A program made the position numbers and the translations under genes. From an uncultured Dehalococcoidales bacterium (lineage in GTDB: Bacteria > Chloroflexota > Dehalococcoidia > GIF9 > UBA5629): DNA of 64,000 nucleotides. This document shows, piece after piece, positions 62,997-63,862 of the stretch. Below the pieces are notes generated by a model. That model was not told the origin of the DNA. It saw only the letters and a list, made by a program, of their open reading frames with translations, and ran no database searches. The stretch covers positions 4,245 to 68,244 of the forward strand of contig CAZQRP010000018.1 of assembly GCA_964596125.1 (NCBI GenBank), read 5' to 3'. Each line of letters opens with the position of its first letter. Positions within the stretch are counted from its first letter, which is position 1.

Positions 62997-63189
62997 AGGG
63001 TTATAGGTATTAAGTCTGTACAGTTAATTGTTGGACTTAATGCTTGAAAAGAAAAAGACCCCAGTTATTGAGCCGAGGGCTAACTTATTCTTGGCAGCAA
63101 AGATTTAATCTGAACCAAAGGCCCCTGTGTGGCTGATACGGAAGTTGGCTCCTCGGAGAGGACTCGAACCTCCCGCCTGGGGCGGGCGG

Positions 63190-63456
63190 TTAATCCGCCT
63201 GAGGCGGACCCGCTCTGCCGTTGAGCATGGTCTTCAGCCATTCTCTGCCTTTACCGGATTTCAATGATTTTTCGCGTTTCATGGCTTCGGCCCTTGTAGA
63301 ATATTGCTCTGACAGGACAAGCTTCCAAGGGCCTCGACCGCGGGTGTACCGAGCTAAGCCCGTTTTATGTTCAAGCAAACGGCGAGGCAGGTCATTAGTT
63401 TGGCCGATGTAGAACTTGTTGGTTGATTCGCTGAGAAGCACGTATACAGTGTACAT
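63190..63456 (-). CDS. GIY-YIG (URI-domain) nuclease-family small protein, copy 1
   Basis: 88 aa, MYTVYVLLSESTNKFYIGQTNDLPRRLLEHK..., carrying GIY/YIG-type motifs plus conserved R and E. It is identical to copy 2. Confidence 0.85.
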   Translation of the reverse strand: MYTVYVLLSESTNKFYIGQTNDLPRRLLEHKTGLARYTRGRGPWKLVLSEQYSTRAEAMKREKSLKSGKGREWLKTMLNGRAGPPQAD

Positions 63457-63510
63457 CGTAGAAGATTGGCTCCTCGGAGAGGACTCGAACCTCTAACCTG
63501 TGGCGGGCGG

Positions 63511-63777
63511 TTAATCCGCCTGAGGCGGACCCGCTCTGCCGTTGAGCATGGTCTTCAGCCATTCTCTGCCTTTACCGGATTTCAATGATTTTTCGCGTTT
63601 CATGGCTTCGGCCCTTGTAGAATATTGCTCTGACAGGACAAGCTTCCAAGGGCCTCGACCGCGGGTGTACCGAGCTAAGCCCGTTTTATGTTCAAGCAAA
63701 CGGCGAGGCAGGTCATTAGTTTGGCCGATGTAGAACTTGTTGGTTGATTCGCTGAGAAGCACGTATACAGTGTACAT
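63511..63777 (-). CDS. GIY-YIG (URI-domain) nuclease-family small protein, copy 2
   Basis: Identical 88-aa product. Its ATG lies 10 nt downstream of the CCA end of tRNA-Asn. Confidence 0.85.
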   Translation of the reverse strand: MYTVYVLLSESTNKFYIGQTNDLPRRLLEHKTGLARYTRGRGPWKLVLSEQYSTRAEAMKREKSLKSGKGREWLKTMLNGRAGPPQAD

Positions 63778-63787
63778 CGTAGAAGAT

Positions 63788-63862
63788 TGGCTCCTCGGAG
63801 AGGACTCGAACCTCTAACCTAGCGGTTAACAGCCGCCCGCTCTACCGTTGAGCTACCGAGGA
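63788..63862 (-). tRNA. tRNA-Asn (anticodon GTT), CCA encoded
   Basis: Hand-folded 75-nt cloverleaf: TCCTCGG TA GCTC AACGGTA GAGC G GGCGG CTGTTAA CCGCT AGGTT AGAGG TTCGAGT CCTCT CCGAGGA G CCA. All stems pair, with one G-U in the anticodon stem. Confidence 0.85.

Follow-up and report, generated by a model that had tools for sequence, protein, structure and literature searches.

How does a nuclease gene of 88 codons come to lie directly behind a tRNA gene, twice in succession, with each copy running out into a piece of that same tRNA? The locus that raises this question lies towards the end of a 64,000-nt stretch of DNA, referred to here as the window, from an uncultured Dehalococcoidales bacterium of the Chloroflexota (GenBank assembly GCA_964596125.1, contig CAZQRP010000018.1, positions 4,245 to 68,244). 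An intact tRNA-Asn gene is followed there by two tandem 321-bp units, each of which carries an open reading frame (ORF) for a GIY-YIG nuclease. The reading that we favor, with a probability of roughly 55%, is that the array holds, twice in tandem, a minute selfish cassette, a nuclease gene with a putative cognate 15-nt DNA hairpin set in a partial tRNA copy, which is expressed from the promoter of the tRNA and maintained, amplified and spread by recombination.

Anatomy of the tRNA-Asn locus

The array and its immediate downstream flank comprise the following features:

63788-63862, minus strand: complete tRNA-Asn (GTT) gene that encodes its CCA and heads the array (ARAGORN; Rfam tRNA, 69.2 bits)
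63778-63787, minus strand: 10-nt spacer ATCTTCTACG from CCA to ATG, without a Shine-Dalgarno (SD) sequence and too short for a promoter (sequence)
63511-63777, minus strand: GIY-YIG ORF copy 1, 88 amino acids plus stop (ORF list; AlphaFold; Pfam run on the identical copy 2)
63467-63547, minus strand: tail 1, partial copy of tRNA-Asn (D-arm, hairpin, TTAACCGC, V-loop, T-arm, 3' acceptor, CCA)
63516-63530, no strand assigned: hairpin of unit 1, TCCGCC-TCA-GGCGGA as read on the minus strand, covering the stop codon of ORF 1 and the codons just before it (pattern scan)
63457-63466, minus strand: second copy of the spacer, identical (ATCTTCTACG), after tail 1 (sequence)
63190-63456, minus strand: GIY-YIG ORF copy 2, nucleotide-identical to copy 1 (ORF list; unit comparison)
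63146-63226, minus strand: tail 2, the partial tRNA copy in its older form, then resident flank ACTTCCGTAT (sequence)
63195-63209, no strand assigned: 15-nt hairpin of unit 2 (pattern scan)
63173-63187, no strand assigned: second hairpin, CCCGCC-CCA-GGCGGG as read on the minus strand, in the V-loop/T-stem of tail 2 (pattern scan)
63057-63078, minus strand: terminator-like hairpin with T-run, 68 nt past tail 2

A preliminary description of this DNA had placed a tRNA-Asn(GTT) at 63862-63788, followed by two 321-bp units, and this is borne out by ARAGORN, Rfam (69.2 bits), TRF and the ORF list. TRF reports a tandem repeat with a period of 321, 2.1 copies and 98% matches, and ARAGORN finds no other tRNA in the whole window. 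Each unit consists of the 10-nt spacer, the 88-codon GIY-YIG ORF and a tRNA-derived tail. Read along the minus strand, the array runs from the tRNA through spacer, ORF and tail to the CCA at 63467, then again through spacer, ORF and tail to 63146, after which comes DNA unlike the spacer (ACTTCCGTAT). The spacer had been correctly recognized as a repeated sequence with no SD and no room for a promoter (ATCTTCTACG after the tRNA and after tail 1).

Both tails keep the D-arm, the anticodon loop/3' stem part TTAACCGC, the T-arm, the 3' acceptor strand and the CCA, and both lack the 5' acceptor strand; the sequence agrees with the earlier account on which tRNA parts were retained and lost. What had been taken for a GC-rich insert containing the stop codon of the ORF does overlap the stop, but it is a well-defined hairpin of 15 nt, TCCGCC-TCA-GGCGGA, standing in place of 6 nt (CGGCTG) from the anticodon stem and loop. 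There are six copies of such hairpins in the window, every one of them in a tail.

The two units differ at exactly four positions (63501 and 63496-63494), all within the tail. At these positions, tail 1 is the same as the real tRNA (AGGTTAGAGG, in the V-loop and T-stem), while tail 2 reads AGGCGGGAGG. Tail 1 is therefore a hybrid, with a V-loop and T-stem equal to those of the real tRNA. Since the ORFs are identical and the 4-nt difference falls exactly where tail 1 became tRNA-like, the tandem pair is most likely the product of one recent unequal crossover or gene conversion, and the repeated integration that had been suggested for it is not needed.

Linkage to tRNA genes across phyla

A scan of one genome per species yielded 80 homologous loci, distributed over the Chloroflexota, Bacteroidota, Acidobacteriota, Desulfobacterota, Gammaproteobacteria, Patescibacteria (the candidate phyla radiation, CPR), Margulisbacteria and others. 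A tRNA gene lies within 160 nt of the ORF at 66 of the 80 loci, co-oriented with it at 65 of these 66, and within 30 nt at 43, so the linkage to tRNA ends that had been anticipated for homologues elsewhere holds in relatives. The idea that tRNA-Asn is the only target does not survive this survey, as Arg, Gln, Tyr, Pro, Lys, Ser, Val, Phe and Met tRNAs also serve as partners, making ten isotypes with Asn. One isotype is kept per clade in Chloroflexi and Bacteroidales (Asn) and in Acidobacteria (Arg); among CPR proteins that are 65-77% identical, the adjoining tRNA may be Asn, Gln, Tyr or Lys, indicating partner switching.

At all 29 loci where the comparison could be made, the tail is closer to the local tRNA than to tRNAs of the same isotype from other loci. 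In the Chloroflexi, the 3' part of the tail equals the local tRNA-Asn at every locus, including species-specific T-stem and acceptor bases, and at three loci (L003, L006 and L010) the identity between tail and tRNA runs on for 8-37 nt past the CCA. The tails are thus DNA-level partial duplicates of the neighboring tRNA gene.

Tandem arrays are found in other genomes as well (L014, L032 and L044). Ignavibacterium album (L201, CP003418.1, ~2.9716-2.9768 Mb) carries three tandem units at tRNA-Asn and Melioribacter roseus (L278, CP003557.1, ~0.729-0.732 Mb) carries one. Both are finished isolate genomes, and tandem arrays are therefore not assembly artifacts in general. The units of these two organisms have a different element, a 16-nt perfect palindrome, TCCGTTAGCTAACGGA, which occupies the T-loop of the tRNA fragment, and a terminator-like spacer is copied along with each unit. 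Reduced and elaborated forms also exist: solo tails (L009, L011), full-length hairpin-bearing pseudo-tRNAs with their own promoter copies (L008, L011) and arrays of pseudo-tRNAs (L032, L044).

The distribution of the cassette among genomes with a common tRNA-Asn core is sporadic. A 36-nt core of the window's tRNA-Asn is present in 75 metagenome loci, and the ORF accompanies it in only two of them (L204 and L208); a further locus (L213) has the tRNA and first flank bases as in these two, yet it is empty. The preliminary description had proposed a minimal mobile or homing unit built on a GIY-YIG gene. The co-oriented linkage in many phyla, the partial copies of the local tRNA and the sporadic occurrence all favor the mobile unit in this proposal; sequence-specific homing is conjectural.

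Several of these loci have features of their own. In L008 (3366-3448) and L011 (3510-3591), a pseudo-tRNA-Asn lies behind a copy of the upstream sequence of the real tRNA. ARAGORN labels these pseudo-tRNAs tRNA-Ile(TAT) and tRNA-SeC(TCA), with the hairpin loop taken as the anticodon, and both score above the Rfam tRNA threshold (33.7 and 36 bits), which makes hairpin-bearing pseudo-tRNAs a trap for annotation. In L009 (~3857-4000), a sequence resembling a miniature inverted-repeat transposable element, with inverted ends of ~22 nt (TAGCGTTGCAATTTAGGTGGTT), is inserted directly before the GIY-YIG ORF, and the first bases of the ORF, ATGTACACCGT, are present on either side of the insertion. Contigs end in or just past the cassette or tail in L003, L007, L016, L018, L020, L030, L037, L039, L066, L075, L080 and others. 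Such ends are expected if repeated tRNA-derived segments break short-read assemblies, and the cassette may account for assembly breaks at several such tRNA loci in metagenome-assembled genomes.

The hairpin element

The hairpin was overlooked in the preliminary description. In its canonical form, TCCGCC-NNN-GGCGGA, it is present at 55 of the 80 loci, embedded in a partial duplicate of the local tRNA gene. There it takes the place of tRNA positions ~25-37, of the D-loop or T-loop, or of the anticodon arm as a whole. The 119 kb of sequence lying no more than 700 nt from an ORF contain 109 copies, and the 389 kb beyond contain seven.

Built around the core CGCC-N3-GGCG, the stem comprises exactly six base pairs, and the seventh position is unpaired. 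The outer two pairs are Watson-Crick in 155 and 145 of 160 cases, respectively, with three pair types each, and G-T pairs number zero and four. The loop triplets are strand-symmetric (GGA 12 and TCC 10; GCA 11 and TGC 11; AGA 6 and TCT 6). Covariation without wobble pairs, together with the lack of a transcription-strand bias, argues for a hairpin formed by DNA and against an RNA element, and this pattern indicates that the hairpin probably acts at the level of DNA. Variants are linked to clades, including GTCGCCTnAGGCGAC at some CPR loci, TGCGCC/CTCGCC doublets, and TCCGTTAGCTAACGGA in the Ignavibacteria.

No conserved directional flank, of the GTC type or otherwise, was found beside the hairpin. 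When the window locus and 15 related loci were compared with all Rfam families, only tRNA, tmRNA and one SAM riboswitch were returned, none of them on the hairpin or the tail. Viral contigs matching GTCCGCCNNNGGCGGAT served as a negative control: among the first 80 such loci, there was no tRNA within 300 nt and no GIY-YIG homologue. The viral matches are thus attributed to chance, and there is no sign of phage carriage.

Two loci depart from the usual arrangement. L002 has a composite repeat (~2060-2140 and ~4430) with two or three copies of this hairpin, in both orientations (loops GCA and TGC), outside tRNA-derived sequence, and the hairpin is consequently not strictly confined to tRNA copies. 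In L204 (~2525-2573), the tail reads GGGTCATTCCGCAGAAGGATTAACC and the contig stops before the element is complete; the start of this tail, GTCATTCC, resembles the Neisseria NTS repeat (CGTCATTCCCGCG; PMC11893778).

The GIY-YIG protein

The 88-residue product of the ORF matches the Pfam GIY-YIG family (PF01541, E=2e-15). Residues Y5, Y16, G18, R26, H30 and E62 are invariant among 38 homologues, so that the catalytic Tyr, Tyr, Arg, His and Glu are all present. The GIY-YIG domain takes up residues 1-79, which makes this a bare catalytic domain without a DNA-binding module. The AlphaFold model (pLDDT 90.3) has strands at residues 2-9, 15-20 and 44-52 and helices at 23-32, 55-66 and 68-79, a predicted β-β-α-β-α-α arrangement that is the catalytic fold of the GIY-YIG superfamily. 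The top Foldseek matches are UPF0213, Slx1, I-TevI and UvrC, and the nearest solved relatives are the UPF0213 entries 1zg2 (E=4e-10) and 1ywl, both deposited merely as hypothetical proteins, and the Slx1 entries 6seh, 4xlg and 7cq3.

The end of the protein is encoded by the hairpin-bearing tail. A C-terminal R-A-G-P-P-x-A-D is kept in the 88-residue homologues of Chloroflexi down to 63% identity, while shorter homologues stop before this stretch, and residues 81-88 are predicted by AlphaFold to be disordered. In a comparison of 13 ORFs, the majority base at third codon positions accounts for a fraction of 0.89 in codons 81-88 versus 0.52 in the body of the ORF. This conservation at the nucleotide level, the predicted disorder and the earlier ends of shorter homologues indicate that the end of the ORF is dictated by the DNA and not by the function of the protein.

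A family of similar proteins has been characterized. The Ssn family (CDD cd10448) consists of single-domain GIY-YIG proteins of ~94 residues, encoded by genes with hairpin repeats (NTS/SRM) on their flanks (Chenal et al., Nat Commun 2025, PMC11893778). Ssn proteins bind these flanking repeats and cut single-stranded DNA (ssDNA) only, not RNA; in Neisseria, they modulate natural transformation, and the authors remark on an architecture resembling that of insertion sequences (IS), leaving open the role of thousands of such nucleases outside Neisseria (PMC11893778). The protein described here is a single-domain GIY-YIG nuclease of the UPF0213/Slx1-like kind and, by analogy with this family, most likely an Ssn-type ssDNA nuclease. 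In a profile search directed toward Neisseria SsnA, the best 120 of 4923 matches are all close relatives. A tblastn search of plasmids returned distant UPF0213/YazA-type matches only, none of them tied to Ssn loci.

Whether the arrangement had been described before was a further question, as the preliminary description held it to be new. The pairing of a GIY-YIG gene with hairpins has been published, as Ssn (PMC11893778), but the tRNA setting was not found described in the literature on GIY-YIG genes beside tRNAs, pseudo-tRNAs, UPF0213/YhbQ or SsnA, and the main text of the Ssn paper makes no mention of tRNA, Chloroflexi or Patescibacteria (PMC11893778).

Expression and the fate of the tails

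At 24 loci, the start codon lies 2-30 nt past a co-oriented tRNA, and an SD-like 4-mer is present in just two of them. It can be placed by eye in the acceptor end of the tRNA itself (GGAGCCA), with spacers of 8-9 nt. The simplest explanation that the sequences offer is that the ORF would be co-transcribed with the tRNA and translated from a near-leaderless message. In the window, the terminator-like hairpin at 63057-63078 is likely to mark the end of a transcription unit comprising the tRNA and both ORFs.

One of the original suggestions was a tRNA-punctuated transcript, in which tRNA and tRNA-like tails alike are processed. Its first half remains plausible, in view of the 24 loci, two of them with an SD-like 4-mer, but the tails are not RNA-processing tRNA mimics. 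An Rfam scan of the locus gives only a partial tRNA match for tail 1 (18.3 bits against a threshold of 29, model positions 10-63) and none for tail 2, and a cloverleaf is absent from the folds of the tails. In many relatives, the T-loop, too, is destroyed by a hairpin, and the duplication runs past the CCA into the flank. Three of four tails do fold into more stable RNA structures than shuffled sequences (z = -2.2 to -4.6), the fourth being that of a remnant at 60.8 kb (z = -0.67).

Remnants and neighboring sequences

The region downstream of the array contains two degenerate copies of the unit:

60844-60983, minus strand: 3' third of the GIY-YIG ORF and tail, with two hairpins collapsed to CCGCC-TCA-GGCGGG
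58006-58167, minus strand: 3' third of the GIY-YIG ORF and a two-hairpin tail like tail 2

The second hairpin type of tail 2 (CCCGCC-CCA-GGCGGG) is found in the 58-kb remnant, too. Both remnants are part of a 254-nt direct repeat (58055-58308 and 60871-61124, 95% identical), in which the 3' end of the GIY-YIG gene and the tail are fused to a common upstream sequence. The copies of this repeat flank a 2.8-kb segment encoding an AbiEii-type toxin, and a gene for a PIN-domain protein is present in the next segment. A 46-nt repeat in four copies (57398-57443, 58263-58308, 61079-61124 and 61241-61286) encodes the peptide P-G-P-L-C-x-R-C-P-L. A likeness of this peptide to the N-terminus of uracil-DNA glycosylase (UDG)/Fe-S-type proteins was seen by eye, and the candidate was dropped when Pfam returned nothing significant.

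Further away, four more fragments resembling a tRNA 3' end (T-arm, acceptor and CCA) lie on the minus strand at 42036-42061, 42755-42793, 49061-49086 and 50091-50116, among genes for an FMN reductase, a CotH/VTC protein, a caspase-like peptidase, a TMEM175-like channel, a MalT/LuxR regulator and methyltransferases. No integrase and no tyrosine or serine recombinase domain was found in the scanned ORFs of at least 90 residues between 42 and 64 kb. Altogether, the region from 42 to 64 kb looks like a zone of serial accretion downstream of tRNA-Asn.

A model for the cassette and the alternatives

How might such a cassette persist? In the model that we favor, the ORF, having neither promoter nor SD of its own, would be reached by read-through from the tRNA promoter, and processing of the tRNA 3' end would leave a near-leaderless mRNA. 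The nuclease, like its Ssn counterparts, would recognize the hairpin when it is exposed in ssDNA, during replication, in transcription bubbles or in incoming DNA, and cut nearby. The resulting break would be repaired on the adjacent homologous tRNA, and gene conversion would keep the tail equal to the local tRNA. By-products of such repair would include unequal crossovers, giving the 321-bp duplication here and the triple arrays elsewhere, and deletions that leave solo tails. Its tRNA homology would also allow the cassette to enter the corresponding tRNA gene of another genome by recombination.

A number of observations weigh against this reading. The link between nuclease and hairpin comes from co-occurrence and from analogy, and the published SRM motif, HGTCWY...RNCYNB, has no match in the window and none near the 80 ORFs. 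A terminator-like hairpin separates the ORF from the tRNA in Ignavibacterium and Melioribacter, and read-through expression can therefore not be universal. An empty allele with the flanks of the window genome was not found, the 75 metagenome loci sharing the tRNA alone, and the constancy of isotype within clades fits long vertical residence as well. An intact tRNA always stays beside the cassette, so that the classic logic of homing, in which the target is destroyed by insertion, does not apply. Finally, the model leaves unexplained how the hairpin came to take the place of tRNA arms. A bolder proposal would view the loci as a cross-phylum class of mobile elements dwelling in tRNA genes, in which the bare ssDNA nuclease and the hairpin work jointly: the hairpin would be a mobile micro-element that the nuclease helps to insert, in either orientation, into the D, anticodon or T loops of tRNA gene copies, and the almost universal conservation of tRNAs would provide the landing pad for horizontal spread. 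We offer it tentatively and do not expect it to hold; if true, it would represent a bacterial counterpart of the eukaryotic tRNA-targeting elements, and a hydrolytic nuclease would be seen to work by a new mechanism akin to transposition.

Could the nuclease instead serve its host, limiting the recombination of incoming ssDNA or controlling the copy number or integrity of tRNA loci, with the tRNA providing expression only? SsnA, which modulates natural transformation together with the NTS repeats (PMC11893778), offers a precedent for such domestication, the invariance of the catalytic residues across phyla implies purifying selection on the protein, and some clades have held one tRNA partner for long. 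Nevertheless, a host function is doubtful: the gene is sporadic among genomes with a common tRNA-Asn core, it is accompanied by tandem copies, truncated remnants and solo tails, and the hairpin is concentrated at its own gene and not at other genes, as seen for all six copies in the window. It is improbable that the tails work as RNA, whether as sites for RNase P/Z-type enzymes in a tRNA-punctuated transcript or as stabilizers of the mRNA 3' end, with the hairpin as an RNA element. Such a role would account for the co-orientation, the 2-30-nt spacers, the SD-like 4-mer at two of 24 loci, the retention of T-arm, 3' acceptor strand and CCA in the window tails and the stability of three of the four folded tails (z = -2.2 to -4.6). 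It is countered by the missing 5' acceptor strand and cloverleaf, the sub-threshold Rfam score of tail 1 (18 bits), the destruction of the T-loop by a second hairpin in many relatives, the extension of the duplication past the CCA into flanking DNA, loop triplets without strand bias, the near absence of G-U-type pairs and the inactivity of Ssn proteins on RNA (PMC11893778).

The remaining two alternatives concern how the array itself arose. Direct repeats of the 3' part of a tRNA are the classic signature of genomic islands, and the tRNA 3'-end fragments at 42.0, 42.8, 49.1, 50.1, 58.0 and 60.8 kb bracket accessory genes, as they would if integrase-borne islands had duplicated their attachment (att) sites in tRNA-Asn and the GIY-YIG gene were a passenger at the edge of an island. 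This is very improbable given a unit of just 321 bp, the absence of an integrase domain from the scanned ORFs (at least 90 residues, 42-64 kb) and the recurrence of the module of ORF, hairpin and partial tRNA at tRNAs of ten isotypes across many phyla, where 2-30 nt separate the ORF from the tRNA; in addition, the replacement of internal tRNA arms by a hairpin is not a product of att duplication. That only one real unit exists and the second is an artifact of assembly is scarcely credible, even though the sequence is a draft contig, the exact protein is found on one 68-kb contig, near-identical repeats of 321 bp are poorly resolved by short reads and many related contigs end at the cassette. 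The tails differ at four clustered and biologically meaningful positions, assemblers usually collapse such repeats instead of expanding them, and arrays are present in the finished genome of I. album and in L014, L032 and L044.

The locus and its relatives reveal a recurrent natural setting for tiny GIY-YIG nucleases, in which the gene is welded to a tRNA gene and the hairpin lies inside a pseudo-tRNA. This setting raises the ideas of expression by tRNA read-through, of recombination that the hairpin sets off between a tRNA and the partial copy of it, and of the tRNA as a universal homology arm for spread. The loci may also supply new pairs of enzyme and site for ssDNA tools, and I. album and M. 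roseus are cultured hosts with finished genomes in which experiments could be performed.

Comparison with known systems

Like genomic islands at tRNA genes, the array has a direct repeat of the 3' portion of the tRNA downstream of the intact gene, with older remnants that bracket accessory genes. It differs in the lack of an integrase among the scanned ORFs, the 321-bp size of the unit and the hairpin that replaces internal tRNA arms.

Free-standing GIY-YIG homing genes also lie between conserved genes, have one and the same gene beside them in a full and a partial copy, and occur sporadically. In fungal mitochondria, for example, GIY-YIG ORFs bring with them a duplicate of the host gene's 3' end, as at atp6 in Allomyces. 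SegB of phage T4 lies among tRNA genes and is reported to drive segmental amplification there (PMC13096335). However, homing endonucleases of this kind are proteins of 200-300 residues with DNA-binding domains for long double-stranded targets, whereas the cassette encodes a bare catalytic domain, has no evident double-stranded target and possesses a conserved hairpin partner.

A small nuclease gene flanked by short palindromes that are read as ssDNA hairpins, with solo copies elsewhere, is likewise found in the repetitive extragenic palindrome (REP)/RAYT (REPIN) systems and in IS200/IS605. These rely on HUH/Y1 transposases that form covalent intermediates. Since a GIY-YIG hydrolase cannot carry out strand transfer, any spread of the cassette must rely on host recombination. 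REPs, moreover, are extragenic and numerous and do not lie within copies of tRNAs.

The closest solved structures and sequences are those of the UPF0213/YhbQ-YazA family and of the nuclease domain of Slx1. To our knowledge, the UPF0213 family has no assigned function, and we know of no association of it with tRNAs or hairpins. Slx1 differs in being a eukaryotic, structure-specific nuclease that needs Slx4.

The closest parallel overall is with the Ssn systems. The hairpin described here is different in that it is only 15 nt long and has no conserved directional flank, in that it sits within partial tRNA copies whose arms it replaces, next to a gene that abuts a co-oriented tRNA, and in that hairpins are few and local (six in the 64-kb window) as opposed to hundreds per genome. 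What the two share is a single-domain GIY-YIG protein of 80-95 residues that is spread across bacterial phyla, accompanied by short, GC-rich, hairpin-forming repeats beside the gene, the sequence of which co-varies with the protein clade.

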